From Parcubacteria group bacterium Gr01-1014_8 (GTDB lineage Bacteria > Patescibacteriota > Minisyncoccia > Phycocordibacterales > UBA2100), in NCBI GenBank assembly GCA_007376385.1, contig VMGC01000001.1:192001-256000 (forward strand): DNA of 64,000 nt, read 5' to 3'. The notes below the pieces were generated by a model that saw only the letters and a list, made by a program, of their open reading frames with translations, did no database searches and had not been told where the DNA came from. Shown in pieces: positions 10,133-49,386 of this stretch. Made by a program: the position numbers and the translations under genes. Position 1 is the stretch's first letter, and every line of letters starts with the position of its first letter.

Positions 10133-11110
10133 CGTGCCAAATACGATAGTCCTTTGACAACTGAAGAACGACACAATTCTTGCTCGTAAGAGCAGGAGAA
10201 AAAGAAAGAATAAGAAATTTTCTGAAAAGAAAATTTCTTTTCGCGCCGTCGCTCGCGGATCATGAGAATAAATTCTCGCGATACCGCTCGCTCGGCGCGA
10301 TCAACAACATTGATTCGGCTATTGTCTTTGGCCGGATCAGTGCAGGAAAAAATGTATTTTTGCGCAACCACTTTTCACAACCACAAGGTTGTAGAAAAGT
10401 GCAGTCCTGTAATAGGGAAAGCAAAAATCAAAAACAATCCGCCTTCGCACACGTTGTGTGCTATGGCGGGACAAAGAAAGTCCCGACACGCCAAAAGGTG
10501 TGACGGGCGCAATGCTTGTCCGTCTTGTAGCGGACAAGCAAAGTAATAAACCAATAACGCGGTTCTCAAATTTCCAAACGGGAATTCTGAGAAAGGGCGT
10601 GCGGCGGATGCCTTGACAGAAGAAGGCGATGAAGGACGCAGTTCGGCGGCGATACGCTTCGGGGAGGTGCCAAGCAACCTTCGATCCGGAGATTTCCGAA
10701 TGGGGAAACCCCATAGAGCAACCCTCTATGACTCATGCTCTAAACAGCATAGAGAGCAGACCTTGGGAAGTGAAACATCTCAGTACCAAGAGGAAAAGAG
10801 ACCAATAGGTATTCCCTTAGTAGCGGCGAGCGAAACGGGAAAAGCACAAACTCAGCCACAAAATCGAAGCGCGATTTATTTCGCGAATCGATTTTGGGGA
10901 TGGGGGTTATAAGGCTACAGCGCTAGCAATAGGTAGAGTAAAAAAATGCTTAGTTAGAGGAAGCGCCTGGGAAGGCGCGCAACACAGGGTAATAGCCCCG
11001 TACTCGAAAACGAAGCATCTCTATGGCTGTAGTTCTTGAGTAACTCGAGACATGAATAGCTCGGGTGAATTTGCCGGGACTAACCGGTAATGCTACATAC
11101 TTCTTCTGAT

Positions 11111-11153
<43 letters not shown>

Positions 11154-12660
11154 GGTGAGGGGAGTGAAATAGACCTGAAACCGCATGCCTACAAGGAGTC
11201 GGAGCGGGCACCACAGTGCTCTTGAAATTTTTTGCAGAATTTTTGCAAAAGATCTTTTCGGGTGCAGTGTGGTGTCCGTCACGGCGTGCCTATTGAAGAA
11301 TGAGCCAACGAGTTAATGCATACAGCTGGCTAAGCCCTTTTCGGGTGGAGCCGTAGCGAAAGCGAGTGTGAATAGCGCGACTATAGTTGTATGTATTAGA
11401 CCCGAAGCCAGGTGAGCTACCCATGAGCAGGCTGAAGTTTATAGAAATATAGATGGAGGGCCGAACCCGTAGATTGTGCAACATCTTGGGATGACTTGTG
11501 GGTTGGAGTGAAAAGCTTATCGAACCTGGTAATAGCTGGTTCTCTCCGAAAGAGCTTTCGGGCTCGCGTCATGGATTACATATGGGGGTAGAGCACTGGA
11601 AGAAGCGGATAGGCCGAAAGGCCACTGCCTCTATCAAACTCCGAATACCATATGCGTACCGTGGCAGTTAGACGATGGGGGCGAAGCTCCATTCGTCAAA
11701 AGGGAAACAGCCCAGACCGCCAGTTAAGGTCCCTAAATCTATGCTCAGTGCATTTCCAAGGAGGTGAAATTTCACAGACAGTGAGGATGTTGGCTTAGAA
11801 GCAGCCACCATTCAAAGAAAGCGTAACAGCTCACTCACTCAGAGATTTCGCGCCACAAATGATCGGGGCTTAAGCATAGTACCGAAACTGCGGATTCAGT
11901 ACGTCTTCGGATGTACTGTCTGGTAGGAGAGCGTTCTCTGTGCGATGAAGGTAAAGGGGTGACCCATGCTGGAGCGCAGGGAAGTGAAAATGTTGGCACG
12001 AGTAACCGCAAGGCAGGTGAGATTCCTGCCCGCCGAAAGAACAAGGTTTCCTTCGCAATGGAGATCAACGAAGGGTTAGTCGGTCCTAAGCCAATGGCGA
12101 ATGCCGCAGGCGATGGATTCATGGTTAATATTCCATGACTCGGAATTGGTGCGATGGAGTGACGGAGTGTTGTACCTCAAGCATATTATGGATTTATGTT
12201 CAGGCCGTGAGGATGCTTTTCAGGAAAATCCGGAGAGCACAGTCCAAGCGGAGTGGAAAAGTGGAGGCCTCGGCCGAAACTGATTTGAGGGAGCACGCTT
12301 CCAAGAAAAACTTCTAAGCTTATAACCAATGACGAACCGTACCGCAAACCGACACAGGTGTTCTGGTCGAATAGACTAAGGCGAACGGGTGAGAGATGCT
12401 CAAGGAACTCGGCAAAAAAGTGGCCGTACGTTAGCAATAAGGCCTGCCCAATACAGTGATGTATGGGGCCGCAGATAATTATTCCCAGGCGACTGTTTAC
12501 CAAAAACACAGCTCCCTGCAAACTCGTAAGAGGAAGTATAGGGGGTGATGCCTGACCAATGCCGGAAGGTCAAGTGTGGTCGGTCTCATATAGCAATATA
12601 TGTTGCTGGCACTACATAAGCCCCGGTCAATGTCGGCGATAACTATAATCGTCCTAAGGT

Positions 12661-13360
12661 TTCCCGCTTAAGAAATTGAGCGGGGAAGGACTGGGACGAT
12701 CATAGAATCGAATAAACAGCGAAAGAAAATACCAAAGCTGCCTCTCTGTGCAGTAATGCACAAGTGGTCCTAGAAACATGGCTATATGCTGGAAACCCTA
12801 TGGTATAATTATTCCATAGATGAGTAATCAGCAGGAAAGGCCAGAGATGAAAGGGTGGATCGTCGGTTTTACCGACGGCGAAGGATGCTTTTCAATAAGC
12901 ATGTTTCGCAACAAAACCACCAAGTTTGGTTGGCAAGTATTCCCAGAGTTTGTAATAACTCAGGGAAAGAAAAGTTTGCCAGCACTCGAAACTTTCCAAA
13001 ACTTCTTTAAGTGCGGAAAGATATACGAGAACGCTAGGTACGATAATCATCGTGAATATCTGTATCGATACTGTGTACGATCAATTTCGGATTTGCGGGA
13101 GAAAATAATCCCGTTTTTTCGAAAAAACAAATTGTATACAGCCAAACAAAAAGATTTCGAACTGTTTGCAGATGTCATAGAAAAGGTGTATCGAAAAGAA
13201 CATCTTTTAGAATCGGGATTGCGAGCGATAGCGCGCAAGATCGAACAGATGAATCGCAAGAAGAAATCAACATTTCTGGAATCCTCAGAGACTACACGCC
13301 ATGCCCCTAAATCTAAATAAGATCGGGTGAAGATATAGTCCAAAGGTAATAGGAACCTAG
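12661..13360 (+). mobile_element. group I-type intron in 23S at E. coli L1917-equivalent site, carrying a LAGLIDADG homing endonuclease gene
   Basis: Inserted between GGTCCTAAGGT and AGCGAAATTCCT. Contains ORF 12820..13320. Confidence 0.7.
12820..13320 (+). CDS. LAGLIDADG homing endonuclease (intron-encoded)
   Basis: 166 aa; motif GWIVGFTDGEGCFSI near N-terminus. Confidence 0.85.
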   Translation: MSNQQERPEMKGWIVGFTDGEGCFSISMFRNKTTKFGWQVFPEFVITQGKKSLPALETFQNFFKCGKIYENARYDNHREYLYRYCVRSISDLREKIIPFFRKNKLYTAKQKDFELFADVIEKVYRKEHLLESGLRAIARKIEQMNRKKKSTFLESSETTRHAPKSK

Positions 13361-13372
13361 AGCGAAATTCCT

Positions 13373-14142
13373 AGAAGACTGGGACTATCAGTCAAAAACT
13401 ACTGATAGCAAATTCTGCTATATGCTGGAAACTCCGAGTATCCAACAGTACCCTGACGAAATGGAAGGGTAAAAATCTGTTGGTGCGGACAATCAGCAGG
13501 GAAGTCGTAATTGACCCCTCAACGACTACACGCAGAACTCCACGAAGCTCATCAATCCGATGCTGTTTCGGGAGGTGATATAGTCTGAACTGCATGGCGA
13601 CATGCAGAGTTTGGCTCGCGCCAAACCGCTTCAAACAAATTGAAGTCATTATTCTCACTAGAGAATAGTAAGTAACAGAATGTGTCTGGTAACTGGATTG
13701 CCAGTTAGTACAGCGATGTACTACAAAAGATCCGCCTGTCAGCAATGACGGTAGTAATTCGGCTTATAACGGTGGAATCCTACTCGGAGCACTTTAGACG
13801 AGGTGCGTTGATGAAAGGATAATACCGTGGGAAGTCTTGTGAGTTTCGTGGAGGGCAACCTCCGTGCGAGAGCGCCTCGCCCGGTTGAGGGCGGTCGGTC
13901 GGCATTGGTGCTGACTGTCTGATCTGGAGCCTCTGTCCAGGCTCTCGCATCAATCTTCTCATCATGGTGATGGGAACTTCCACGAAACTCGCAATGACCC
14001 CGTAACGACTTAGCGCGAAAGCGCTGGAAGTGTCTCAAAAACACTTAACACGCCGACTCTGCAATGCGCAGAAGAAGATATAGTCTAATGCCCGAAGTAA
14101 TTCGGGGAGAGTGTCATATTGCGCGAAATATGACGATCAAAC
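13373..14142 (+). mobile_element. second intron-like insertion in 23S (L1931-equivalent), no intact ORF
   Basis: A 12-nt exon AGCGAAATTCCT separates it from intron 1; exon resumes near TGAAGTTCAGACGCGCACGAATGG. Only short or antisense ORFs inside. Boundaries approximate. Confidence 0.45.
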
Positions 14143-14700
14143 TCAAATGAAGTTCAGACGCGCACGAATGGTATAACGACTTGGGAACTGTCTCGAGCAT
14201 TTGCCCGGTGAAAATACAAGGGCGGTGAAGATGCCGCCTTCCTGCAGCTAGACGAAAAGACCCCAGAAGCTTTACTGTAATTTGGTATTGAGGATACGAT
14301 TTTTCCGCGTAGCGTAAGTGGGAGGCTTTGAAGCAAGGATCTCGGTTCTTGTGGAGCCGTCAATGCAACACCACTCCTAAAAATTGTATTTTCTAACTTC
14401 CATAGCAAAACTGTGGAAAGACAGTACCTGATGGACAGTTTCGGTGGGGCGCTGTCCTCCTAAAAAGTAACGGAGGAGCCTATTAAGGTCACCTAGGTGC
14501 GAATGGAAACCGTACCGGTAGTGCAATGGCAAAAGGTGGCTTGACTGCGAGTCGTACGTGACAAGCAGGCGCGAAAGCGGAGCATAATGAACCGATGGTT
14601 CGCATTAGATGCGACCAAAGATTAACGGATAAAAGTTACTCTGGGGATAACAGGCTGGTTTCGCCTAAGAGTCCAAATCGACGGCGAAGTTCGGCACCTT

Positions 14701-15552
14701 AACAAATCGGGGTGCGACGTAAGCAATTACGTAGCTTGGCTCACACATGAGACCAAGAACCAACATGTGTGCAGTTCAAATCGTGGCTTATAACGGTGAA
14801 CTCCATGGTATTATAGAACAATCGTTCTATAGTATATGGACAATACCGTGGGAAGTTTAACTCAATTACAGCGATCAATAATTATCGGTAGTCTCTTAGG
14901 TGATGGCTACTTACGGATCGTACCGCGCAGATACAATGCGTTTCTCGAGATCAATCATTCGTATTCACAAAAAGAATATGTTGATTGGACATTCGAGATG
15001 CTCAAATCGATCTGTAGAAGCGGTCCGAAGATGCGAAACGGAAATGGTGTGCGAATTGCATACCGTTTTACGACTCGTCAAATGCCGGAAATCACCGAAT
15101 TGTTCAAAGTGTTTTATGCCAATGGCAAGAAATAAATTTCGAACAATTTAAGATTAGATCCGATAATGCTTGCTGTATGGTTCATGGATGATGGAAGTAG
15201 GTGTAGCGTTGAGAACGTGTACCTTAATACTCAGCAGTTTAATTTCGATGATCAAGAAAAATGCAGGGCAATGCTCATGCGGCTTGGTATCGAAACAACT
15301 CTCAATAAGGACAAGAAGTATTTGAGAGTGAGGATAAAAACATCCTCAATCCCAAAACTTCATAAAATTATCTCACCGCACATCATTCCATCCATGAAAT
15401 ATAAATTGGGTTATAACCCCGTAGAGACTCGCTTCTTCGGAAGCGGAGTTACTGACTCTGTAATGAGCAGTAGCTAACACGCCACCTCCTTTCAATAGAA
15501 AGGATGATGATATAGTCCGATCCTTCCAGTAATGGAAGAAAAAATGACATTG
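14701..15552 (+). mobile_element. third intron-like insertion in 23S (near L2500-equivalent, GGCACCT|CGATGTCGGCTC) with split LAGLIDADG gene
   Basis: Exon resumes at CGATGTCGGCTCATC (~15553). Contains ORFs 14836..15135 and 15166..15477. Confidence 0.7.
14836..15477 (+). pseudogene. double-motif LAGLIDADG homing endonuclease interrupted by an in-frame TAA (two ORFs: 14836..15135 and 15166..15477)
   Basis: First half carries IIGSLLGDGYL; second half carries VWFMDDGS. Spacing fits a single ~210 aa enzyme. Stop codon at 15136-15138. Confidence 0.6.
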
Positions 15553-15786
15553 CGATGTCGGCTCATCTTAGCGCGGGGCTGGAGAAGGTCCCAAGCGTAT
15601 GGCTGTTCGCCATTTAAAAAGGTACGTGAGCTGGGTTCAAACCGTCGTGAGACAGGTTGGTCTTAATCTGCTGTAGGCGTTGATTCTTGAGGAGACTCAT
15701 TTTTAGTACGAGAGGACCGAAATGAACTGACCTCTGGTCTGGGGGCTGTAGTACCAACTGCATCGCCCCGTAGCTATGTCGGGATT

Positions 15787-15819
<33 letters not shown>

Positions 15820-16004
15820 GACTCCAAGATTAGGAATCGTTATAGACTCGTGGGAGATGACCACGTTGATAGGCACCAGGTGGAAGCGCAGTAATGCGTT
15901 GAGCCGAGGTGTACTAATTAGTCGACAGAATTCTCGAAAGGAATTTTGGGAGTCGCGATACTGGTTTATTGCGACGAGCGAGGACGAAGCGAAAATTTAT
16001 TGGC

Positions 16005-16808: not shown

Positions 16809-19190
16809 ATGCTGAAACAAGATGAGCATTGGTGGTCGCCGGGGGTGCGTAAGCGGATCATGGACGGTCCCGCCGCTGATTCGAAAATTGTGGACAGCGG
16901 CGTAGGGTCCAAAACGCCCGAGGGAAGCGGATCGTGGTCCGAAACTGCGCAGCAAATTCTCGACTCTTTGTTCGCTACTAAAAACAGCAGGAGTTTCGAG
17001 GAATATCTCGAACGAAACTTCCTTACAGAACCTCGTATCTCCGACAAAGTGACATTACAATCACTAGCATATGCCCGCGACAAGCTGGCGGCGTTGGGTA
17101 GCGACCGCCGTAACAGAGAAGACGGCACAGATGCAGAACTTATTCAAAATGCGCATGTCGCACTCGTCCGAGCAATTATAAAGGTGCGTGTCGCGCAGGA
17201 ATCCACACCCAAATCGAATAAAGAACGGGAGCCGTATAAAGACCCGACTATTGTCACAGCAGCAGAAGTCCAACAATCGGCGATAGACACGCAGCGAGAC
17301 TTGCATATTCGCGCCGAACAGACCGAGCATGAAATTCGGGTTCTTCTGGATAAGTTATTTCACGCCAGTATTCTTGGGAAAAAAGAAAGACAATCAGTCG
17401 TAGATGAGATTGAAACCTACGTAAAAGAAGCCAAAGAGAGTATCGATGAGAGGCGCTATGCGTATCTGCAGATGTCGCTCGCTTCAGTTTGGCACTCGCT
17501 TCAGGATATTGAGAGAAAAAAAGAGCCAAGCGCTGAACTACTTGCAGAACTATCGAAACGCGCCTACGACGAACTCTATGGCAAGTTACGGGAGACTGCG
17601 CGCGCGCTTTTTAATGTTGAGCTTGATTCGTACGCACTTTCTGACGAGCGGGATGTTATTTCTGTTTTCACGAATACAAGCCACACATCTCGATTGCATG
17701 AGTTGGGTTTGACAGCGGAAGAAATTGACTCGTTCCGCATCGCGGCGGGGTTTCTCCAAAAACACCAATCAGATTATCGGTTGGTCGGCTCATCGGCATT
17801 TGCCACGAAGCTATTTCTAGGTTCGTTCAATAAAGTTACGTGCAGAAATCATATAGAAAATGTCACCGTTGCGCTTGATAAAGCACTTGTGCGTCGAATG
17901 AGAGATGAGCTCGTTCAATTACTTCCCGAGCTTTGGAATGCGGGGGTATATAAGTACACACCTGAAGTCATCATAGATAAAATGATGGAAAAAGCCGACG
18001 CACAGTATCAAGCGGGATTTCGGAATAGTTATTCAAGATTGCGCCCAAAACTGGAAGAAGCATTCCGCGATGCAGAAGAGAGACTTCGAGCAAGTGGCGT
18101 TGAAGCGACGGCTCGCAAAGTGGAATTTAACGAGGAAGAATGGGCACTCGATGCGATATTGAGCGAGAATCGGGCACGGCTTGAATATCTTGAATTCATC
18201 AATCCATCGAACGGTGCCGCAGAAAAAGCGAAATTCTTTGATGCGTTGAAAAGAGGCGAAGAATATAATCCGCAATTAGAATACGCGGTGAAGGAATCTC
18301 AGGAGCAAGCACTCAAGCTTGCGTCGCATACAATAGAAAGAGCAGGAAGAATGGTGAAAACGGGTCCAAACGTCGATATATTCGTTCGGGAAATAGTAGT
18401 GCAGGAGCGTACACTTGAGTTTATACGAGGCATTGGCGCGGAACACTGGTCGCAGCGTCGTGCCGAACGACTGTTCGGTCGCATCGACAGATTTCTTCTC
18501 GATGACACAGTTGCCGAGCTCAAAGAAATGCCAAGCGGTTTTTTTGAGAACGGAGGAGAGAATCTTTCGAAAGACGAGGTTAGAACGCAGGCAATGAAGG
18601 CTTTGAAAGATGTTGGCGCTTCAGATTGGTCATTCGACTTTCATGCGCAAGAAAATGTGCCATCTGTCGTGCTCGCGAGCAGGAAGCAAGTCTTTTTCCA
18701 GAAACGCGAAGTGTATCCGGAACAATTCGTGAACATTCTCATAGCGCATGAAATTTACGGCCATGTTGCACAAGATAATAATGCTTTGAAGCACGGAGTC
18801 GGACTTCTTCAGAGCGGTCTCGGCAATTACGAGCCACTGATGGAGGGTTTTGCGCTTGATCAGGAACGGAAAGTAAATCCTCTCACGGAACTTCGCATTA
18901 AGTTCTACTACGCTGCAGTCGCGCATGCAGCTAAACACTCCTTGCATGATACGTTCCAGTATCTCAAACGATGGCTTCCCGATGAGGATGCTTATGCACT
19001 GGCGTCACGGGTGAAGCGGGGGATGCGGGACACGAGTAAGCCCGGTACGTGGCTTAAGGACAAGATATATTTGGAGGGACTAACAGAACTGGATCATATG
19101 TCGGCTGAAGATCAGGCGCTTGTGAGGCACGGCAAGTTTGAAGGAGCTCTGACGGCGAACGTTCGTCGGCTCGTTTCCAATCGGCTCTAG
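16809..19190 (+). CDS. large protein with C-terminal DUF1704/QEGLA/MATCAP-like metallocarboxypeptidase domain (HExxxH ... EGxA)
   Basis: 793 aa. IAHEIYGHVAQ (HExxxH, nt 18748-18765) followed ~25 aa later by PLMEGFALDQE (QEGLA-type motif). N-terminal ~550 aa is helical, charged and of unknown function. Confidence 0.5.
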   Translation: MLKQDEHWWSPGVRKRIMDGPAADSKIVDSGVGSKTPEGSGSWSETAQQILDSLFATKNSRSFEEYLERNFLTEPRISDKVTLQSLAYARDKLAALGSDRRNREDGTDAELIQNAHVALVRAIIKVRVAQESTPKSNKEREPYKDPTIVTAAEVQQSAIDTQRDLHIRAEQTEHEIRVLLDKLFHASILGKKERQSVVDEIETYVKEAKESIDERRYAYLQMSLASVWHSLQDIERKKEPSAELLAELSKRAYDELYGKLRETARALFNVELDSYALSDERDVISVFTNTSHTSRLHELGLTAEEIDSFRIAAGFLQKHQSDYRLVGSSAFATKLFLGSFNKVTCRNHIENVTVALDKALVRRMRDELVQLLPELWNAGVYKYTPEVIIDKMMEKADAQYQAGFRNSYSRLRPKLEEAFRDAEERLRASGVEATARKVEFNEEEWALDAILSENRARLEYLEFINPSNGAAEKAKFFDALKRGEEYNPQLEYAVKESQEQALKLASHTIERAGRMVKTGPNVDIFVREIVVQERTLEFIRGIGAEHWSQRRAERLFGRIDRFLLDDTVAELKEMPSGFFENGGENLSKDEVRTQAMKALKDVGASDWSFDFHAQENVPSVVLASRKQVFFQKREVYPEQFVNILIAHEIYGHVAQDNNALKHGVGLLQSGLGNYEPLMEGFALDQERKVNPLTELRIKFYYAAVAHAAKHSLHDTFQYLKRWLPDEDAYALASRVKRGMRDTSKPGTWLKDKIYLEGLTELDHMSAEDQALVRHGKFEGALTANVRRLVSNRL

Positions 19191-20272
19191 CCCTTCTTAT
19201 CAGGAGTACGGTCGGGCACGATAGTCACAACTGCCGGTATGAGGCCGCCACTTTGTGAGATGTTGAGCTTTTCACCGGGCAGGTCGCGGCAAGTCCTCGA
19301 CATAAAAAATATGTTGTATTTTCCCGAGTGCTTGTCTTTCATGAGATACATGTCAAGGCCGTACTTGTACGTTACGCCCTTGAAATCAAATGTTGCAATA
19401 TCAATGAATTCTTGCAGTGCATACACTACGCCCCCCGGGTTTTTTTCTTTGTCCGGCACGGGAACTTGTTGGCCGGGAAAATACACATCGTCGCCCGCAA
19501 GGCCAACACTGGCTTTACATACCCAGCCTTCAGGGACGACAAAAGTCTCGCCGGGCACGATGACTTTCTTCTGCCCTTTGGGAAGAATTGGTGATTCGAT
19601 ATCCGTAAGTTGTGATTTGTCGCCTGCACGTACTGTGCCCTGTTTATTGACCACGTCCGCCAAAGCCTCTCGTATTAAATGGTGAGAATCGTTCAATTTC
19701 TGCAACTCGGCATCCAGTGTGAATCGTAGTGCCTTATTCATATCTATGCCGGCATCTACTGCTGTCTTGATGTTCTCAAGATCGGCAGGTACTTGTGTGA
19801 ATTTCCCTCCCCACATGTGATCACTAGCTATACGAGCTTCTGCCTCGCCGACTCTCTGGACTCCTGTGTTCTCATTCGACATTACCCATGTCGGAGTCGT
19901 CATATCTTCCATGTTTTGTCCTATCGTGTCGAACGTTTGCATTTCTCCGTATGCTGCGTGTGCAATTGCGTTGAACATAACGCCGCCGGGGATCTGAGCA
20001 TTTATTTCTATGAGACGCATATCCCCGTTCTTGGTCGGTGCGAGGTCAACCCGCATAAATTCCGGTGTATTGAGCAGCCCTGCTTTCTTTGAAACCGTTT
20101 CGACAACTCGTATCGTTTCATCGACAACTCGTCTGGGAAGTTCAACATACATCGGGGGGAAAGTCGGGAATACTTTCTCGCCAATCCTTACGTAGTTATG
20201 TAACAAATCCGGCATCTCGGGCTGTCTTTCAGGATCTGGGTGTCTGACATCTTTCGGCCGCAATTCACTCAT
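19187..20272 (-). CDS. ATP-grasp-like amidoligase (motif near N-terminus; possibly permuted or atypical)
   Basis: 361 aa; MRVDLAPTKNGDMRLIEINAQIPGG (nt ~19985-20060) matches the ATP-grasp D/E-x-N Mg-binding strand. Its 3' end overlaps the DUF1704 gene by 4 nt (convergent). Confidence 0.45.
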   Translation of the reverse strand: MSELRPKDVRHPDPERQPEMPDLLHNYVRIGEKVFPTFPPMYVELPRRVVDETIRVVETVSKKAGLLNTPEFMRVDLAPTKNGDMRLIEINAQIPGGVMFNAIAHAAYGEMQTFDTIGQNMEDMTTPTWVMSNENTGVQRVGEAEARIASDHMWGGKFTQVPADLENIKTAVDAGIDMNKALRFTLDAELQKLNDSHHLIREALADVVNKQGTVRAGDKSQLTDIESPILPKGQKKVIVPGETFVVPEGWVCKASVGLAGDDVYFPGQQVPVPDKEKNPGGVVYALQEFIDIATFDFKGVTYKYGLDMYLMKDKHSGKYNIFFMSRTCRDLPGEKLNISQSGGLIPAVVTIVPDRTPDKKG

Positions 20273-20442
20273 AGCGGAATAATATCACAGCCCGTTTTGC
20301 GCTTGTCTTGCACAGCTAAATTGCAAATGTTAGCGTGTCCGAATGCATCCAAACGGACTGCAGAACATCATTTCGATTATTACTCCCGAGGAAGCGGGGG
20401 AATTTTCGATTGTGTAGGAAGTAGGTAAACCAAAACAATCAG

Positions 20443-20466
20443 AAGCCCCCGCAAGGGGCTTTTTTG
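20443..20466 (+). terminator. hairpin plus T-run (agcccccgcaaggggcttttttg)
   Basis: GCCCC/GGGGC stem with T6, lying upstream of the minus-strand ATP-grasp gene. Confidence 0.5.
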
Positions 20467-21299
20467 ATGCTTCGGATTCGGCTCTTGCAAATCGAGATTC
20501 GAATCTGGGGTCGTCAGGGCTCCAGCCGGCTTGAGCCGGAAACTCGAATGGTCTGGAGGACCCATGGGAAAGTATCCCAAACCTGATCCTTTTGCTGCGC
20601 CATTTGGCATCAACTGTCGGCATGCCTCCGATTCGGAGCCGAGGAAGCCGAAAGTCCGCCAACGCCGGAGGATGAAAATCCGAAAAGCGAAAAAAAGCAA
20701 AGCATAAGGCAGCGCTCCACCGCCTCCTTTTAAGCTAAGGCTCGTCGCGCGACTCGTTCGTGCGGCGGCCTTTCTTTATAAAAACTCAGCCGTAGCGCGA
20801 GGAGCGCTACGGCCAAGGACGTCACTCCCAGATGATTTCGACATACTCGTGTGGGCGAGCTGGGTCGACACCTGCGGGACGCAGAACCACCCTCCGTGGG
20901 GTGCGCCGCCTCCGAACGGGTGAGTTCGGGGCAGACCCCGACGCTTTCGCGTCGTCAATCCGGCTCAGCGCCAAGATTTCTTGTTTATCAGTCGTGCAAT
21001 TCCTGGGCATTTGCCACCTCGCTTTCAGCACAGGCCGTGTTCCACCGGAATGGTCATACACGGAGTCTATGCGGAGTATTCTGCACAGGCCCCGGGCCAC
21101 CACAAGGGCACTTCCATTTTTGTAACGCCTTGCGGCTAACAAAAATTGGTCGCACCCATTAAAAAAGCCCTCCTAGGTGGAGGGCTTGTCTGTATCTACT
21201 TTATTTTTCTCAACTAGACACAAGCAAAACCTCCACCAGAGTGGGTAAGAAGGAGGCTAAGGAGAAGACCTTTTATATACTTGTCGGACATGGATTTGA

Positions 21300-21632
21300 T
21301 TGTATTGGACATTTGTATCCTGTCAACGATACAATCTGTTCATGAGCGATAAGTCGTGGAAGCCGGATGCGCAGAAGCTGCCAACTCTTTCGCGAGATAC
21401 AGCCAAGAAAATGATTGACGATTTTCCAACGATCAAGAGTGCGTATTTGGCTGAAACAAGCAAAGAGGGAGGCTTGATACTAGCGACAGAACTCGCGAGG
21501 GGATATTTAGAGGATATTTTAAATCTTCCCGAAAAAGAACGGAACACGTGGGATTCAGAAATAACAGGTCTCGGAAATATTCTGTGGTTTTGGGAGCATC
21601 GACATGATCCGAATCAACGCGAGCCTCGCTGA
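21300..21632 (+). CDS. hypothetical protein (likely start 21342, MSDKSWK...)
   Basis: 110 aa ORF, coding-like. Confidence 0.4.
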   Translation: MYWTFVSCQRYNLFMSDKSWKPDAQKLPTLSRDTAKKMIDDFPTIKSAYLAETSKEGGLILATELARGYLEDILNLPEKERNTWDSEITGLGNILWFWEHRHDPNQREPR

Positions 21633-22494
21633 GCATAGTGGCAGGCAACGGAGCAAACATCAGGACTCGCAACTTATAGAATCCATGACAAACGCATTTT
21701 TCGGACGACCCAGAGAGCCAGACAGAGCGGAACAACCGCTTTCGCATGAAGACATGGTGCGCATTGCCTCGCAGTTGCATCATGATGCAATATTATCCCC
21801 GAAGAGATTTGATGACGCTGCCGATGCACGACTGCGAGTCGTCAAAGCATTTGCGAATCTCGCAATACAAACGAAGGAGTATCTCAACACGTCGTGCGAT
21901 ACCCTGATCATCGACCAAAAGAGCGGCAATTTGCCGGGTCTGTTCTTCAAGCAATTGACGGCAGATATCTACCGCAATACGGGTAAGGTCGCACCTGCTA
22001 TCCACGACATCGTTGCAAGTCTTCGTCTTCCGGATCGCGTCAATGTTCTTGAAACATACTTTCGAGACGCTTTTGAGAATCAATTGATCGGCGACCACAT
22101 TCTCATCGTCACTGAACACGCAATATCTCGAAGTAGTGCGGGTCTCGTAACGTTTGCCGATATGATTAAGCGGATTGGCGCAGAGTTTGGGAAAGAGCCC
22201 GAGATCCGCTTTGCCGCGGTTTCAGTTGGCAGAGAATTCCCGACACGTGCGCAGCGGGCGGACAAGGGGCTTGAAAATTTGTATCAATGGTACGCCGGTG
22301 AACTTGGATACTCCATCGGCTCAATGGCGTTCCACCGGGCAAATGTAAATGATCTTGCGTATATGGAAGGAAGCGCTCGTCCTCGGATAGTACCTTCTTC
22401 GGAAGCGGGTCCGGATGCCGAGGCCGCAAAAGCCGACATGATCATGCTCGCCCGTGAACTCGCTCCGCTTGTCCTTGGTAAAAAATCAACGTAA
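21604..22494 (+). CDS. hypothetical protein
   Basis: 296 aa, no firm motif; sits between the ATP-grasp gene and a GATase1 gene. Confidence 0.5.
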   Translation: MIRINASLAEHSGRQRSKHQDSQLIESMTNAFFGRPREPDRAEQPLSHEDMVRIASQLHHDAILSPKRFDDAADARLRVVKAFANLAIQTKEYLNTSCDTLIIDQKSGNLPGLFFKQLTADIYRNTGKVAPAIHDIVASLRLPDRVNVLETYFRDAFENQLIGDHILIVTEHAISRSSAGLVTFADMIKRIGAEFGKEPEIRFAAVSVGREFPTRAQRADKGLENLYQWYAGELGYSIGSMAFHRANVNDLAYMEGSARPRIVPSSEAGPDAEAAKADMIMLARELAPLVLGKKST

Positions 22495-22503
22495 GGTAGG
22501 CAA

Positions 22504-23247
22504 ATGGCGGCCAGAATTCTCGTCATACAATTCCGCTTAAGAGATCAGGCGCGCGCGGAGCAGCAGCCCTTAGAGCGCGTGCTCGGAAGCGAAAAATGCT
22601 CACTGGTTTTTAAGAACGCTTTTGTGGAAGGTATCGATTGGAGTCGCCCGGAACGTGAATTGCATGGATTCGATGCGGTCATTTTGTCAGGCTCCGGCGA
22701 CCTTTATTTTGATGGCGGTTATGCCGAGACTCACCACGGTCGGATAATTACCAGCAGGCTCGCGGAAAACGCAAAACCGTTTGCTCAATACCTCATAGAA
22801 AACAATATTCCGACCCTCGGCATCTGTTTTGGCCATCAACTGCTCGGGTATGCGGCAGGTGTGAATGTCGGCCATTCACGAATTGAGAGTAAGACAGGCA
22901 CCTACGGGGTACGGTTGACGGACATAGGAAGAACAGATCCCCTCATGAAAGACATCTCAGACCGTTTTGCAGCTCATTACGGGCATAAAGACGTACTCTT
23001 TGATCTTCCGCCCGGTGCGGTGGTGCTTGCTCATGGGGAAGACAAATGCCGCTATTCAGCTCTTCGATACGCTCCGCGCGTCTACAGCGTGCAATTTCAT
23101 CCAGAACTTTCGCGAAAGGAGATCGAGAACATCATGAGGAAATATCCCGAATATATGCCTGACGATAAGGATTGTGATGAGTTGTTCGAAGATACGGAAG
23201 AAGCCGAGCATATTTTGAAGAATTTCGTTCGTGTAGCGACACGCTAG
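22504..23247 (+). CDS. class I glutamine amidotransferase-like protein (GATase1; PuuD/GuaA-N-like)
   Basis: LGICFGHQLLGYAAG (Cys elbow) and SVQFHPE (His-x-Glu). Confidence 0.7.
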   Translation: MAARILVIQFRLRDQARAEQQPLERVLGSEKCSLVFKNAFVEGIDWSRPERELHGFDAVILSGSGDLYFDGGYAETHHGRIITSRLAENAKPFAQYLIENNIPTLGICFGHQLLGYAAGVNVGHSRIESKTGTYGVRLTDIGRTDPLMKDISDRFAAHYGHKDVLFDLPPGAVVLAHGEDKCRYSALRYAPRVYSVQFHPELSRKEIENIMRKYPEYMPDDKDCDELFEDTEEAEHILKNFVRVATR

Positions 23248-24077: not shown

Positions 24078-25232
24078 ATGATAGAAATGTTGAGAACGGG
24101 AGGTCGAGAGTATTCCCGGTGGTTTTCCCACATTGATTGGTTCCTGTTCGCCTCCGCACTCGCGATATCGCTCCTAGGCCTCATCACGATGAGGCCCTTT
24201 GCCGCAGACCCCGGCGCCTTTTTTGACCGGCAGATGTTCTGGATAGCTATCGCATGCGCGGTATTTTTTATAGCGAGTATTCCTGAATACAGTATGTTGC
24301 GGCGCTCGCGCTTCGTTGTCGTTCTCTATGCGTTCATCGTAACCTTGCTTGCATTCGTGTTCGTATTTGGCGCGGTGGTAAAAGGCGCCCAGCAGCGATT
24401 CGATCTAGGGTTCATCTCGTTCCAGCCCTCTGATCCTGCAAAGTTAGTTCTCATCATCGTCCTTGCAAAATATTTTGCGCGTCGTCATGTTGAGATCGGG
24501 CACATCCGGCATATATTGGTTTCAGGAGTTTACGCTTTTCTTCTCTGCATCATGGTCTTCTTGCAGCCGGACTTTGGCGGAGCCATCATCATTGCGTCAA
24601 TCTGGCTCGGCATGGTGTTGGTCGCCGGCATTTCGTGGCGGCATCTTGCGACACTCATCATTACAGGACTCGTGTGTGCGGGTGCTCTGTGGCAGTACGC
24701 GCTCGAGGATTATCAAAAAGATCGCATCCTCACGTTCATTCATCCCCTCGCAGATATACAGGGGGCTGGCTACAACGCGTACCAAGCGACCATTGCTGTT
24801 GGTTCTGGTGAGTGGATAGGCAAGGGTATCGGACAAGGAAGTCAGTCGAAGCTGCGGTTTCTCCCTGAATATCAGACAGATTTTATTTTCGCAGCGTATG
24901 CAGAGGAGTGGGGATTCGTTGGGGTAGTACTCCTGTTCGGCCTGTACGCGGTCCTTATTTTGCGCACGCTCGCGAGCGCGCTCCATGCGTCGGATAATTT
25001 CACAACGCTTCTTGGAGTCGGCATAGCTATCATGTTCACAACCAACTTTCTCGTTCACGTCGGTATGAACATCGGCCTTCTACCTGTTACGGGAACGACA
25101 ACTCCGTTCATGAGCTACGGCGGCTCGCATTTGCTTACGGAATTCGCTGCTATAGGCATCTTGATGGGACTTAGAAAACACACGCGTCCTGCGGCGCGAG
25201 CGAGAACTCAATCACTCATTGAGGAAGTCTGA
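24078..25232 (+). CDS. SEDS-family peptidoglycan glycosyltransferase (FtsW/RodA)
   Basis: 384 aa, 10 TM; GYNAYQATIAVGSGEWIGKGIGQGSQSKLRFLPEYQTDFIFAAYAEEWGFVG. Confidence 0.85.
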   Translation: MIEMLRTGGREYSRWFSHIDWFLFASALAISLLGLITMRPFAADPGAFFDRQMFWIAIACAVFFIASIPEYSMLRRSRFVVVLYAFIVTLLAFVFVFGAVVKGAQQRFDLGFISFQPSDPAKLVLIIVLAKYFARRHVEIGHIRHILVSGVYAFLLCIMVFLQPDFGGAIIIASIWLGMVLVAGISWRHLATLIITGLVCAGALWQYALEDYQKDRILTFIHPLADIQGAGYNAYQATIAVGSGEWIGKGIGQGSQSKLRFLPEYQTDFIFAAYAEEWGFVGVVLLFGLYAVLILRTLASALHASDNFTTLLGVGIAIMFTTNFLVHVGMNIGLLPVTGTTTPFMSYGGSHLLTEFAAIGILMGLRKHTRPAARARTQSLIEEV

Positions 25233-25235
25233 TTT

Positions 25236-26381
25236 CTAACGGCCAGTGCTTGCGTTATAGACAGCAAGCGTATTCCGTATCATTGCCGCGAGTGAGAATT
25301 TTTCTGTAACACGAGTCCTTAGCGCAGAGCCGAGTCGCTCTCTCGCAGCCTGGTTCGCATACAAGAACACAAGCGCATCACACAGAGCGCGCGCATCAGA
25401 CACTGGGGTCAGTATGCCTGTTTGCGACGAGATTATTTCAGCAATGCCGCCTGTATCGCTTGCGATGACAGGCACTCCTGCGCTGCCTGCTTCGAGGATA
25501 GCGTAATTGAGACCTTCAGAGAGAGAAGGGAGAAGGAATACATCGAATGCCTTCAGGGATTCAGATGCATCAGCGACAAAGTCTGTGAGATGTACTCGAT
25601 CAGAAAGATCCATGCTTCGTATTTGTTGTTCTAAGCGTCTCTTTTCAGCGCCGCCGCCGATCATTAAATATCTTGCGTCGGGATGGTCTTTTGAGAATTT
25701 ATGAAACGCCTCGATACCGAAGGAAAGCCCTTTCACCGGATGAAGTTCCGCAATGGTGCCTATCCAAAATTCGTTTTGTTCTTTGGGACAGTGTGCAATG
25801 GTTGCAAGGTGCTGCCGTGCTTCCTCTCGGGATTTGAACAAAATAGAGGGAATGCCATTGTGCACGACAGTTATTTTGCTCTGTAATGATGGTCCTATCT
25901 GCTCCTTGACCCTTTCCGAGACTGCGATCGTTGTATGGGAGAGCATGACCGTTAATTTTGCCAAGAGCCGAATAAAGATTCGGGAGGTCCCTGGGCGAGG
26001 TGCATTGAACTCCCATGCGTGAGCAGTAAAGATGATGTGGGGAACGCCGGCCAATCGTGCCGCGATTGCCCCGATGCCGCCCATCTTAGAACTATTTGTA
26101 TGCAATATCTGAGGGCGTTCCCGCCGGAGCAGGCGGTAAAAATCGAGAAAGGATCTGAGGTCCCCAAAAATACTGACATTTCGGACCAGGGATTCGAGAG
26201 AAATGGTTCGTATTCCGGCATTGTGGAGCTTGTCCATCAGTATCCCGCGTCCGCCAGCAACGACGACTGTCTCGTATGAATCTTTAGGAAGCGATGTCGC
26301 AAGGTCGTATACATATCGCTGCGCCCCGCCATAATTCGACTGCGTTATGGCAAGCATTATTTTTATAGTTTTTCCTTGCAC
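25236..26381 (-). CDS. glycosyltransferase family 4 (GT-B, group 1)
   Basis: 381 aa; C-terminal EGLNYAILEAGSAGVPVIASDTGG. Confidence 0.8.
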   Translation of the reverse strand: MQGKTIKIMLAITQSNYGGAQRYVYDLATSLPKDSYETVVVAGGRGILMDKLHNAGIRTISLESLVRNVSIFGDLRSFLDFYRLLRRERPQILHTNSSKMGGIGAIAARLAGVPHIIFTAHAWEFNAPRPGTSRIFIRLLAKLTVMLSHTTIAVSERVKEQIGPSLQSKITVVHNGIPSILFKSREEARQHLATIAHCPKEQNEFWIGTIAELHPVKGLSFGIEAFHKFSKDHPDARYLMIGGGAEKRRLEQQIRSMDLSDRVHLTDFVADASESLKAFDVFLLPSLSEGLNYAILEAGSAGVPVIASDTGGIAEIISSQTGILTPVSDARALCDALVFLYANQAARERLGSALRTRVTEKFSLAAMIRNTLAVYNASTGR

Positions 26382-26458
26382 ATAGCCATAATAGCTCTCT
26401 TTGGCAATCGAGAGAACTGTGGCTAAAAGTCGCGATTCCTGCTATACATTCCGAATAT

Positions 26459-27826
26459 ATGAGCTCGGTACGTATTCGAGAGCTCCTCATGCTGTTCTTG
26501 GGGGATCTGATTTTTCTTGTTCTCGCATTGTGGGTGACGCTCGCTGTGCGCTATTTTGAGATTCCTTCGCGGCCGCTTCTCGAAAGTCACCTCATCCCAT
26601 TCTCGCTCCTTTTCGTTGTCTGGCTCCTTTTATTTTTTATGGCAGGTCTCTATGACCAACACACGATGATATTCCGCGCGAAATTACCGGAGCGGATCTT
26701 GCGCGCGCAAGTCTTGAACATCATCATAGCTGGCCTCTTTTTCTTTTTTGTCCCTATCTTTGAGATAGCCCCGAAGAGAAATCTTCTTATTTATCTTGTT
26801 GTCTCCCTGGTTCTCATTGTGTACTGGCGTCTCGAGCTTTTCCCGCATTTTTTGTCGAGAAAGCGCGAAGACTCGCTTCTTATCGGTGGAGGGAGCGAGT
26901 TAAAGGAGTTGATGGAGGAAGTGAATAACAACGACCGGTACCCATTCATATTCAAAGAAAGTATTTCTGTCGATCATATGGACGGAGGAGCGCTTTCGAA
27001 CAAGGTTTTTGCGCTCCTGAGGGACGAAAAGATCAGCATGGTGGCAGTCGATCTGAAGCATCGAAAATTGGCCAACATTTTACCGCATTTGTACAAGCCT
27101 CTCTTTTCGAACACTAAATTCGTCGACTTGCGCGACTTGTATGCTGAGATTTTCGAGCGTCTTCCGCTCTCGATGCTTACGGATGCCGAATCCATTCAAC
27201 ACTCTGCCAACGGAACGCCGCACTTTGTGTATGCATCATTCAAGCGGATGATGGATATTTCCGGAGGCCTCATCATGGGTTTTATCGCCATGATTCTCGT
27301 GCCCGCAGTCTGGCTCGCGCAAAGATTCGAAGGCGATGGTCCTCTTTTTATCGCGCAGCAACGTCTCGGAATGAACGGAACAAAGATGACATCGTACAAA
27401 TTCCGAACGATGCGTCTCAATGATCCATCGAGTGCATCGTGGGTGCACGAAGGGGAGAATACAGTTACACGTGTTGGCTCCTTTTTACGGCGCACGAGCT
27501 TGGATGAATTTCCACAATTCATAAATATTCTGAAGGGCGAAATGTCTCTCATTGGACCGCGCAATGATATTGAGGGCTTGGGCAAACGACTTTCGGAAGC
27601 TATCCCTTTTTATGATTTTAGATACATCGTGAAGCCGGGACTCACTGGGTGGGCCCAAATAAACCAGAAGTATGAGCAGGGGAACATTTCCCCGCAATCG
27701 ATCGAAGAGACAAAAGTGCGTCTCGCGTATGATTTCTATTACATAAAAAATCGCTCGATAATGCTTGATATCATCATTGCTCTGAAGACCGTGAAGCGCA
27801 TGGTATTCCGGGTCAGTTCTTGGTAA
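26459..27826 (+). CDS. polyprenyl-phosphate sugar phosphotransferase (WbaP/bacterial sugar transferase family)
   Basis: 455 aa; N-terminal TMs; C-terminal DEFPQFINILKGEMSLIGPR...KPGLTGWAQIN. Confidence 0.8.
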   Translation: MSSVRIRELLMLFLGDLIFLVLALWVTLAVRYFEIPSRPLLESHLIPFSLLFVVWLLLFFMAGLYDQHTMIFRAKLPERILRAQVLNIIIAGLFFFFVPIFEIAPKRNLLIYLVVSLVLIVYWRLELFPHFLSRKREDSLLIGGGSELKELMEEVNNNDRYPFIFKESISVDHMDGGALSNKVFALLRDEKISMVAVDLKHRKLANILPHLYKPLFSNTKFVDLRDLYAEIFERLPLSMLTDAESIQHSANGTPHFVYASFKRMMDISGGLIMGFIAMILVPAVWLAQRFEGDGPLFIAQQRLGMNGTKMTSYKFRTMRLNDPSSASWVHEGENTVTRVGSFLRRTSLDEFPQFINILKGEMSLIGPRNDIEGLGKRLSEAIPFYDFRYIVKPGLTGWAQINQKYEQGNISPQSIEETKVRLAYDFYYIKNRSIMLDIIIALKTVKRMVFRVSSW

Positions 27827-27835
27827 AGTACGCAA

Positions 27836-28912
27836 ATGAGCCACAAAATCCTCATTACTGGCGCCGCCGGCTATGTCGGTTTTATGCTAGTAGAGCAATT
27901 TTCGAAGCGCTCCGATGTGGAGAAAATAATCGCACTTGATAAAGAGGTAATGCCCGAATCCTTCAAGAAAGACCCGAAAATTCTTTACATTCAGGCGAAT
28001 ACAAGTGATGAGTGGGAGGCAAAAGTCGCACAACAGGCGCCTGACATCATTGTCCATGCCGCATGGCATATCCGCGACATCTACGGCAATAGTTCGAAGC
28101 AGTGGAAGTGGAATATCGCTGGTTCAGACAAGGTATTCGATTTTGCCTTCTCGCAACATTCTGTGCAAAGGCTCGTCTATTTTTCGACGGTTGCATCCTA
28201 TGCGCCGTATCCGGAGAATGAAATATCCCACGTGTTCACGGAAGAATCGCCATTTCGTTCGAGCGATTATCGCTACGCAGAAGAAAAACGCATAAGCGAA
28301 ATGCATTTGGAAGAAAAATATAAGGTTGCTACTGCAAAAAGAAAAGACATTTCTGTGTTTGTCGTTCGTCCTGCAGCCATATCCGGACCGCGCGGACGTT
28401 TTTCAAGGATTCGATTTGGCTTGCAATCGGCGCTCTCGGGTCAGCTTTCAGGTTCTTTCGTGTACAGAATCGTGACGCTTCTTACGTCGTTCGTGCCTGC
28501 GACGCCAAAATGGGCCAGGCAGTTCGTGCACGAAGATGACGTCGTTGATATTGTCGAGCTTCTCGCGTTTGACGCACCGCAATCAGGATATGATGTATTC
28601 AATCTCTGCCCGCCTGGAGAGCCGGTCTTGGCGAAAGACATGGCGCAGGCGGTTGGGAAGCGCATCCTGCCAATGCACCCCCTGCTCATTCGTTTTGCTT
28701 TTTTCCTCATGTGGCATCTTTCCCTTGGAAAGATCCCGACGACGAGGGGCGCATGGAAAGGATACTCGTATCCGATAATTGTTGATGGGAGCAAGATAAC
28801 GAAAAAGTATGGATACACCTATCGTATGGCTTCTAAAGATGCGTTCGTCTACACTGATGGCAGGTATGAGGGTGCCATACCTCGCATGTACTTGAAAAGA
28901 AAAACAGCATGA
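27836..28912 (+). CDS. NAD-dependent epimerase/dehydratase family protein
   Basis: 358 aa; ILITGAAGYVGF Rossmann motif. Confidence 0.65.
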   Translation: MSHKILITGAAGYVGFMLVEQFSKRSDVEKIIALDKEVMPESFKKDPKILYIQANTSDEWEAKVAQQAPDIIVHAAWHIRDIYGNSSKQWKWNIAGSDKVFDFAFSQHSVQRLVYFSTVASYAPYPENEISHVFTEESPFRSSDYRYAEEKRISEMHLEEKYKVATAKRKDISVFVVRPAAISGPRGRFSRIRFGLQSALSGQLSGSFVYRIVTLLTSFVPATPKWARQFVHEDDVVDIVELLAFDAPQSGYDVFNLCPPGEPVLAKDMAQAVGKRILPMHPLLIRFAFFLMWHLSLGKIPTTRGAWKGYSYPIIVDGSKITKKYGYTYRMASKDAFVYTDGRYEGAIPRMYLKRKTA

Positions 28913-47671: not shown

Positions 47672-48340
47672 AGAAGGCTTGAACTTTGACAACTGAATAT
47701 GAAAAATTGTACGCAAAACCAAAAAAGAAATTGGTAAGTAAAATTGTTGCCGGCGCTCGCTCGGAATTGAAAATTTATTTTCATTTCGCTCGCTCGCATG
47801 GGCAATAAGAATTCTTGTTGTTCTCAAGTTAGGAACAATAAGACACACACAAAAGCAAGAAAACAGAAAATACATATTGAGGTTCCAGGAGGATCTCATG
47901 TGTAAGTAAACAGTAATAACGAGACAAAAGATCCCCCAAGGGGACTGCGACTTTCTACGATTCAAATGAATCGTGAAAGTCGGGAGATATACATTCTTTT
48001 GTTTCGTCCATCCTAGAGATATTGAAGCAATTCAAATTCTTGAAAGTGGTGTAAAAACCATTTTTACTTAGAGTTTGATCCTAGCTCAGGGTGAATGCTG
48101 GCGGTATGGATAAGGCATGCAAGTCGAATGGGTTAGACCCATGGCAGACGAGGTAGTAACAGGTAGGTACGTCCCCGGAAGTCGGGCATAACCAGCCGAA
48201 AGGTTGGATAATTCCCGATGGTCTCGCAAGAGTAAAGATTTATCGCTTCCGGAGCGGCCTGCTTTGTATCAGCTTGTTGGTGAGGTAACGGCTCACCAAG
48301 GCTATGACGCATAGGGGACCTGAGAGGGTGACCCCCACCG

Positions 48341-48377
<37 letters not shown>

Positions 48378-48891
48378 TGCAGCCGAGAATATTCGACAAT
48401 GGGCGAAAGCCTGATCGAGCGATACCGCGTGGTGGATGAAGCGCTTCGGCGCGTAAACACCTTTTATGAGGGAAGAAATTTTGACGGTACCTCATGAATA
48501 AGGGGCTCCTAACTCTGTGCCAGCAGGAGCGGTAATACAGAGGCCCCAAGCATTACCCGGAATTACTGGGCGTAAAGGGTGCGTAGGTGGTCATATTAGT
48601 CGCCTGTTAAAACCCACGGCTCAACTGTGGAACCGCGGGCGAAACGGTATGACTAGAGAGAGTGAGAGGTGAATGGAACTCATGGTGTAGGGGTGAAATC
48701 CGTTGATATCATGGGGAACACCGAAAGCGAAGGCAATTCACTGGCACTTTTCTGACACTCAAGCACGAAAGCGTGGGTAGCGAACGGGATTAGATACCCC
48801 GGTAGTCCACGCCCTAAACGATGATCGCTGGATTTGGGGAGTATCGACCCTCTCCGAGTCGAAGCTAACGCGTTAAGCGATCCGCCTGGGT

Positions 48892-48923
<32 letters not shown>

Positions 48924-49386
48924 AGACGGGGGCTTGCACAAGTGGTGGAGCGTGTGGCTCAATTCGTCGCTAAGCGAAGAACCTTACCAGGGCTAGAAAT
49001 CCAGCTGCATACTTTGGGAAACCTTAGTAGCCTTCGAGGGTGCTGGACAGGTGATGCATGGCTGTCGTCAGTTCGTGGTTTGAATCGTTCCCTTCAGTGG
49101 GGTAACGAACGCAACCCTCGTTGCCTGTTATATTTGTCAGGCGAGACTGCCCCCTCACGGGGGAGGAAGGTGAGGATGACGCCAAGTCAGCATGTCCCTC
49201 TGATGTCCTGGGCTGCACACGCGCTACAATCGCCGTTACAACGAGGCGCAACGTCGTAAGACCGAGCAAATCTTTCAAAAGCGGCGCCAGTTCGGATTGA
49301 GGTCTGCAACCCGACCTCATGAAGCCGGAATCACTAGTAATCGCGGGTCAGCCACACCGCGGTGAATACGTTCTCAAGCCTTGTAC

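Follow-up and report, generated by a model that had tools for sequence, protein, structure and literature searches.

A predicted permuted ATP-grasp ligase and a MATCAP-family peptidase form a linked two-gene module in bacteria

In the tubulin tyrosination cycle, an ATP-grasp ligase (TTL) and MATCAP-family carboxypeptidases (MATCAP/TMCP) act on one C-terminal carboxylate. A comparable coupling is found in the glutathionylspermidine synthetase/amidase GspSA, where a permuted ATP-grasp synthetase is joined to a hydrolase that reverses its reaction. We analyzed a 64,000-nucleotide stretch of the genome of Parcubacteria group bacterium Gr01-1014_8 (contig VMGC01000001.1, positions 192,001 to 256,000; hereafter the window), in which a gene for a MATCAP-family (DUF1704) peptidase converges on a gene for a predicted ATP-grasp ligase, and we find the two genes to be linked across distant bacterial hosts. 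We know of no established function for a bacterial MATCAP-family protein, and their NCBI name, 'flavohemoglobin expression-modulating', is uninformative on chemistry. The peptidase domains of the tubulin cycle are homologous to the window domain (E=1.4e-10). In GspSA, which we group with trypanothione synthetase-amidase, the hydrolytic part is a CHAP cysteine amidase that belongs to the same polypeptide as the synthetase, whereas the predicted hydrolase of the window is a separate zinc carboxypeptidase, and the ligase is a single-domain protein without a CHAP match in Pfam. Other permuted synthetases, YgiC/YjfC and the fungal Cp1B of the E-64 pathway, share only 13-14% sequence identity with the window ligase; YgiC/YjfC adjoin DUF1190 genes and Cp1B resides in a fungal gene cluster, neither being paired with a MATCAP peptidase.

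A closer counterpart came from a tblastn search of plasmids with a canonical QEGLA protein, which yielded 90 records. In Sinorhizobium meliloti pSymB, Aminobacter and Shinella, we found a conserved trio of genes encoding an N-formylglutamate amidohydrolase (FGase), a QEGLA protein of 617-628 aa and a 'glutathione synthetase', the latter being a classical GshB-type ATP-grasp enzyme (PF02955, 1.4e-50). As in the window, the MATCAP-family gene is located directly beside the ligase gene, and the arrangement is kept across genera with differing flanks. The two systems differ in several respects, however. The operon ligase is of the classical, non-permuted GshB/RimK type, whereas the window ligase is permuted and has no Pfam model. 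An FGase gene or fused domain accompanies the operon but is missing from the window, where no protein matches PF05013 or PF02955 in Pfam. The operon MATCAPs score 325-342 bits on PF08014, and the divergent window MATCAP scores 65 bits. The rhizobial FGase is encoded by a gene of its own upstream, with QEGLA still having a ~275-aa N-terminal region without Pfam match; in a Vibrio sp. HDW18 plasmid (L018, 4113-6104), an FGase domain (PF05013, 2e-11) is fused N-terminally to the MATCAP domain. The original prediction, made from the window sequence, had held that ligase/DUF1704 pairs are neighbors in some proteobacteria, which is what the rhizobial operons contain. Because of these operons, a MATCAP-family peptidase next to an ATP-grasp ligase is to be regarded as an existing, uncharacterized bacterial pairing, of which the window variant uses a permuted ligase lineage. 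Among the papers covered by our literature search, none connects DUF1704, KIAA0895 or QEGLA to ATP-grasp enzymes; DUF1704/ATP-grasp/GCS2 neighborhoods are reportedly described in an amidoligase survey (Iyer et al. 2009).

We compared the window peptidase with MATCAP-family profiles and structures. Residues 481-765 match Pfam PF08014 at E=6e-18 (65.4 bits, cutoff 27), as anticipated for the C-terminal part of the protein. The NCBI equivalog model TIGR02421 (QEGLA) likewise finds the protein (9e-20), with a match beginning at residue 451, but its score of 71.2 bits is far below the equivalog cutoff of 338.65; by sequence, the window peptidase and the TIGR02421 proteins belong to a common superfamily and to separate subfamilies. 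In a phmmer search of the PDB, human MATCAP (KIAA0895L, 7z5g/7z6s) was matched at E=1.4e-10. The alignment places HEIYGH on HEIGTH, MEGFA on EEGLA and RVKRGMRDTSKPGTWLKDKIYLEG on RAKRGQTDTSLPGCFSKDQVYLDG, in agreement with the proposal that an HExxxH motif paired with E-G-x-A is a hallmark of the family. Glu-281 in the zinc motif of human MATCAP is the catalytic residue (PMC10499314). We next aligned the window peptidase with ten relatives, of which eight are ligase-linked and two are stand-alone DUF1704 proteins (alignment A4; residue number = A4 position + 440). His-647, Glu-648, His-652, Glu-679, Gly-680 and Ala-682 are invariant, as is a C-terminal R-V-K-x-G...T...G...K...Y..G block. Identity of the window domain is 31-49% with MATCAPs linked to a ligase (8 other loci with a complete gene) and 27% with one stand-alone DUF1704. 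The profile score, the human MATCAP alignment and the invariant motifs together establish, at the level of sequence, that the protein is a member of the MATCAP/DUF1704 family with an intact predicted active site.

The peptidase domain is preceded by a long N-terminal extension, which had been estimated at 550 aa. Its length is corrected to ~440 aa by the starts of the profile and homologue alignments (TIGR02421 from residue 451, Pfam from 481, homologues from ~441). The 440 residues are coding: their reading frame contains 0 in-frame stops, compared with 12-30 in the other frames, and the GC content by codon position (0.59/0.39/0.47) resembles that of neighboring genes. Searches of Pfam, PDB, PHROGs and PADLOC gave no match to the extension, nor did tblastn against the related loci. 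In the related locus L002, the partner gene starts ~10 residues before the conserved MATCAP domain, and the partner in L001 has only ~85 extra residues, after an assembly gap. The extension is thus specific to this genome. We also considered it as a relative of the N-termini of FGase-type QEGLA proteins, and rejected this since it shows no similarity to the N-termini of proteobacterial QEGLA proteins, that of S. meliloti included.

The ligase was more difficult to place by sequence profiles. Pfam returns only sub-threshold matches, to GSP_synth (PF03738; E=0.053, 13.1 bits, cutoff 29.3), R2K_3, Dala_Dala_lig_C and R2K_2, all within residues 52-115, and the strongest GSP_synth match among 12 family members has E=8e-4. 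A first search of the PDB with a ligase profile gave no match, and a later one gave only marginal matches to VanA/Ddl at the Mg hairpin (E 0.26-1.1). A word-indexed search of 5.8 billion proteins recovered three members of the ligase family, and of 14 matches from an HMMER scan covering 1.84 billion representatives, 12 are credible full-length homologues. The family is extremely rare, is without a Pfam model and was previously undescribed. In the ligase alignment (A3), Arg-74, Asp-76, Glu-89, Pro-95, Asn-209, Lys-219, Lys-253, Gln-287, Arg-326 and Gly-342 are invariant, and Asn-91 and Asn-337 are nearly so. These invariant residues represent the ATP-grasp catalytic set, with the R-x-D...E-x-N Mg hairpin being N-terminal rather than C-terminal: Arg-74, Asp-76, Glu-89 and Asn-91 come first, followed by Lys-219, Lys-253 and Gln-287. 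The same order is found in YgiC, where the hairpin corresponds to Arg-100/Asp-102/Glu-115/Asn-117 and the two lysines to Lys-267 and Lys-302, spaced 35 residues apart in YgiC and 34 in the ligase. The Mg strand pair can also be aligned to the C-terminal RVD..EVN of VanA/Ddl.

An AlphaFold2 model built on the 12-member alignment shows an ATP-grasp fold of permuted topology, whereas an alignment of 3 close homologues gave a predicted local distance difference test score (pLDDT) of 45. It is this model that makes the ATP-grasp assignment solid, since sequence alone remains sub-threshold; the assignment in the original prediction holds by modeled fold and conserved residues, but not by sequence profiles (best Pfam E=0.053). 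The classical domain order and closest structural similarity of RimK/TTL-type enzymes were not found in the ligase, and the RimK/TTL type claimed for it gives way to the permuted GspS/YgiC/eukaryotic-GS group, within which the modeled ligase forms a separate family without a Pfam model. One family member, P0019 (539 aa; in a 90% cluster with P0016), is extended at its N-terminus by a domain of ~190 aa, which matches CYTH below threshold (triphosphate tunnel; E=7e-4, 19.9 bits, cutoff 23.2). This protein also contains many Trp residues, some at columns that are mostly Gly in other members, which suggests that they may be mistranslated UGA codons.

We investigated the linkage of the two genes in eleven independent loci carrying a ligase family member, the window included. 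In 10 of the 11, a MATCAP gene adjoins the ligase gene or, in L010, is one gene apart, as the proposed co-occurrence of the two families required. The genes are arranged in three ways. The ligase gene precedes the MATCAP gene in L001 (Candidatus Gracilibacteria HE327_NSB042), L002, L007 (with a 4-nt overlap), L012 and L016. MATCAP precedes the ligase in L005/L006, L008/L009 and L013/L014 and, with a GCS2-like gene in between, in L010/L011. The two are convergent in the window, and L015 contains a ligase gene without MATCAP. The flanks are unrelated, and the hosts of the paired loci range in GC content from 23 to 56% and include Parcubacteria, Gracilibacteria and an organism that reads UGA as Trp. 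All-versus-all clustering of open reading frames (ORFs) of at least 35 aa within ±4 kb found the ligase and MATCAP to be the sole families common between loci. Pairwise identities of the ligases and of their MATCAP partners co-vary (Pearson 0.83, Spearman 0.68, the pairs not being independent). Where DUF1704 genes are more distant, in 12 loci in all, neither a ligase nor GshB, FGase or GCS2 is encoded next to them. Pattern scans of metagenomes found no ligase; with MATCAP patterns they gave only 10 loci, which are among these 12 and hold distant stand-alone DUF1704 genes. The 10/11 linkage, the unrelated flanks, the co-varying identities and the distant DUF1704 genes without ligase together indicate that ligase and MATCAP form a coherent, co-inherited and self-contained two-gene module. 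In L016 (468-2549), whose host has a GC content of 23%, both module genes contain in-frame TGA; this host reads UGA as Trp, since one of these codons falls on a position where all eight other partners have Trp. In L015 (3634-10830), genes for GCS2, Peptidase_C26, an AMP-binding/DdaG_C ligase, the permuted ATP-grasp protein and two M20 peptidases follow one another on one strand, in what looks like a small-peptide or pseudopeptide pathway.

Several neighbors that might have been counted with the pair are particular to this genome. A stand-alone class I glutamine amidotransferase (GATase) is indeed encoded downstream, as had been proposed, but we rejected it as a component because no other locus contains a homologue; a further gene with a GATase fold is present only in L015, where it encodes a true Peptidase_C26 (9e-46), and it gives no tblastn match to the GuaA-like GATase of the window. 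The ORFs orf110, orf296 and orf261 were rejected for the same reason, and no conserved precursor peptide or third gene of at least 35 aa was found within ±4 kb across loci. A defense-system or phage origin was dismissed in the absence of any PADLOC or PHROG match. The location of the pair next to the 23S-5S rRNA genes had been taken to favor a ribosomal substrate. This positional argument fails, since none of the ten other loci has an rRNA gene; no riboswitch was found in them either. Hence the GATase, the neighboring ORFs, the N-terminal extension and the rRNA neighborhood belong to this genome only and lie outside the module.

We propose that ligase and carboxypeptidase work as a pair on a single carboxylate substrate, for which a small glutamyl-type peptide is more probable than a ribosomal protein, and we give this reading a probability of roughly 0.55. 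From the gene linkage, the folds and the conserved catalytic residues, we infer that a common substrate probably gains a terminal residue from one enzyme and loses it to the other. The ligase would phosphorylate a terminal carboxylate with ATP/Mg, forming an acyl-phosphate, and couple an amine to it. This amine is most plausibly an amino acid rather than a polyamine, since the partner is a predicted carboxypeptidase and an added amino acid would provide a free carboxylate. The MATCAP-family zinc carboxypeptidase would then remove the C-terminal residue from the substrate molecule of the ligase, a step that may undo or limit the ligation or, alternatively, expose the acceptor carboxylate. The logic would be that of the glutathionylspermidine synthetase/amidase fusion, and no gene of the module encodes the substrate. 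We lean toward a small glutamyl-type peptide for three reasons: the close structural relatives of the ligase all act on small carboxylates or peptides; a GCS2-like γ-glutamyl ligase gene separates MATCAP and ligase in L010; and L015 has two M20 peptidases in the place of MATCAP together with GCS2, Peptidase_C26 and a DdaG-like ligase, to which the FGase of the rhizobial operons may be added. The reversible C-terminal modification cycle of the original prediction survives as a ligase/peptidase module; its RimK/TTL type and its positional argument for a ribosomal substrate do not.

Several points weigh against this proposal. The activities of both enzymes and their substrate are predictions, from sequence and from a structure model. 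The case for a small molecule draws on accessory genes in 2/11 loci and on analogy, and the genes of the window, being convergent, cannot share a transcript. The sole characterized MATCAP-family enzymes act on protein C-termini, namely those of tubulin (PMC10499314). YgiC and YjfC are peptide-spermidine ligases according to their RefSeq names and to work cited in PMC12568646. In addition, the 440-aa extension could be a protein-targeting domain. With characterized MATCAPs cutting at protein tails and YgiC/YjfC acting on the C-termini of peptides, a target that is a protein or a long peptide stays a live rival.

In its general form, this rival holds that the module reversibly tags the C-terminus of an abundant conserved protein, such as a ribosomal protein or FtsZ, in analogy to TTL/MATCAP or RimK. 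A module that spreads between unrelated hosts and carries no substrate gene with it needs a ubiquitous substrate, which a conserved protein would provide, and the genome-specific extension could serve to recruit it. We consider protein tagging possible but doubtful, the gene content of L010 and L015 and the small substrates of the ligase's structural relatives leading us to the glutamyl peptide. Somewhat less probable is a biosynthetic role, in which the ligase would make a glutathione analogue or a bioactive pseudopeptide resembling E-64 or dapdiamide, and the peptidase would serve in maturation, self-protection or salvage rather than in reversal. The gene row in L015 has this appearance, but in 9/11 loci the module consists of two genes only, no other gene for biosynthesis, export or resistance is conserved with it, and a two-gene antibiotic pathway lacking an exporter is unlikely in host-dependent, small-genome candidate-phylum bacteria. 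A more specific version of protein tagging would have the mobile pair act as a prokaryotic counterpart of tubulin tyrosination/detyrosination, modifying the tail of a universal protein (FtsZ or a ribosomal protein) to which the extension targets the peptidase. We regard this as a long shot; if true, the pairing of an ATP-grasp ligase with MATCAP would be older than eukaryotes.

A role in remodeling or recycling of cell-wall peptides, with the carboxypeptidase trimming the peptidoglycan stem peptide and the ligase re-extending it, is improbable. FtsW/RodA is encoded downstream of the module, the ORFs at 25236..28912 resemble envelope-biosynthesis genes in appearance, and Ddl/VanA are the sole sequence-level matches of the ligase in the PDB. 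However, such a context is not conserved at other loci, what the ligase shares with Ddl/VanA does not extend beyond the universal Mg-binding hairpin, no signal peptide is evident in either protein, and the ligase depends on ATP of the cytoplasm. That the adjacency is without functional meaning, with the enzymes in unrelated processes, would fit the operon-less convergent genes of the window but can hardly be reconciled with its recurrence in distant hosts and three arrangements amid otherwise unrelated flanks, or with the co-varying identities.

The coordinates of the features are collected in the table below. Both ORFs and the quoted motifs were found as originally described: IAHEIYGHV (His-647/Glu-648/His-652) and MEGFALD (Glu-679) in the peptidase and MRVDLAPTKNGDMRLIEINAQIPGG (Arg-74, Asp-76, Glu-89, Asn-91) in the ligase. 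The convergent 4-nt overlap was also borne out, its sequence CTAG being a palindrome that provides a TAG stop codon on each strand, one for the peptidase and one for the ligase gene. The two neighboring ORFs without assigned function are present too. Pfam, NCBIfam, PDB, PHROGs and PADLOC gave no match for orf296, and the related loci contain no counterpart of it; it is tightly packed against the GATase gene, with a 9-nt gap.

Table. Features of the module and its surroundings in the window (position 1 is the first nucleotide of the window).
Feature	Coordinates	Strand	Evidence or remark
MATCAP-family protein, 793 aa, G01um10148_208	16809..19190	+	ORF; PF08014 E=6e-18; source name
N-terminal extension, residues 1-440	16809..18128	+	coding; genome-specific; without detectable homologue
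MATCAP/DUF1704 zinc carboxypeptidase domain (predicted), residues 441-793	18129..19187	+	profile and homologue matches
HEIYGH zinc/catalytic motif, H647/E648/H652	18747..18764	+	invariant in A4; human MATCAP alignment
MEGFA motif; E679 = predicted third zinc ligand	18840..18854	+	E, G, A invariant in A4
Circularly permuted ATP-grasp amide ligase (predicted), 361 aa, G01um10148_209	19187..20272	-	
R74-x-D76 ... E89-x-N91 Mg/ATP strand pair	20000..20053	-	invariant or nearly so in A3
K219 and K253, predicted ATP-binding lysines, and start of Gly-rich loop	19514..19618	-	invariant in A3
CTAG, stop-codon overlap of convergent genes	19187..19190	both	
Class I GATase	22504..23247		PF00117 1.4e-20; in NCBIfam, generic "glutamine amidotransferase" models come out best, none reaching its cutoff
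orf110	21300..21632		without family match (Pfam, NCBIfam)
orf296, 296 aa	21604..22494	+	no family match; 9-nt gap to GATase gene
FtsW/RodA	24078..25232		PF01098 7e-88; downstream of module

Some further observations concern the surroundings of the module. A gene-free gap of ~1 kb (20273-21300) contains a stretch on the minus strand (20780-21165) with a GC content of 0.60, compared with ~0.48 nearby. It folds better than shuffled sequence (z=-4.07; plus strand z=-2.95) and ends in a strong intrinsic terminator (20817..20785). A near-consensus promoter (21326..21299, 11/12) and a second terminator hairpin (21187..21165) are located upstream. No Rfam match was found for the stretch, which could represent either a structured RNA not yet described or a long leader preceding the ligase gene. 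The 23S rRNA gene (10579-15938) is 5.36 kb long. Within it, at 12820-13320, 13363-13607 and 14836-15477, are a group I intron, a LAGLIDADG_1 ORF and, in two separate ORFs, a split LAGLIDADG_2 endonuclease. The 16S rRNA gene (48063-49422) is unlinked, 32 kb from the 23S gene, and covers the full model length in only 1360 nt. A match to group II intron D1-D4 (42 bits, cutoff 35) is located ~200 nt downstream of it, at 49639-49726. An intron-containing 23S gene and a 16S gene apart from it are in keeping with the candidate-phylum origin of the bacterium.

Our analysis ties one MATCAP subfamily to a previously undescribed and very rare family of permuted ATP-grasp ligases, and it defines a ligase family that is missing from current domain libraries. 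Taken with the rhizobial QEGLA/GshB operons, it suggests that ligase plus MATCAP is a recurring bacterial unit, which has been assembled at least two times from different ligase lineages. The module provides a compact two-protein system for learning what bacterial MATCAP enzymes cleave, and it allows for a test of whether the ligase/MATCAP logic of eukaryotes has a bacterial precedent.

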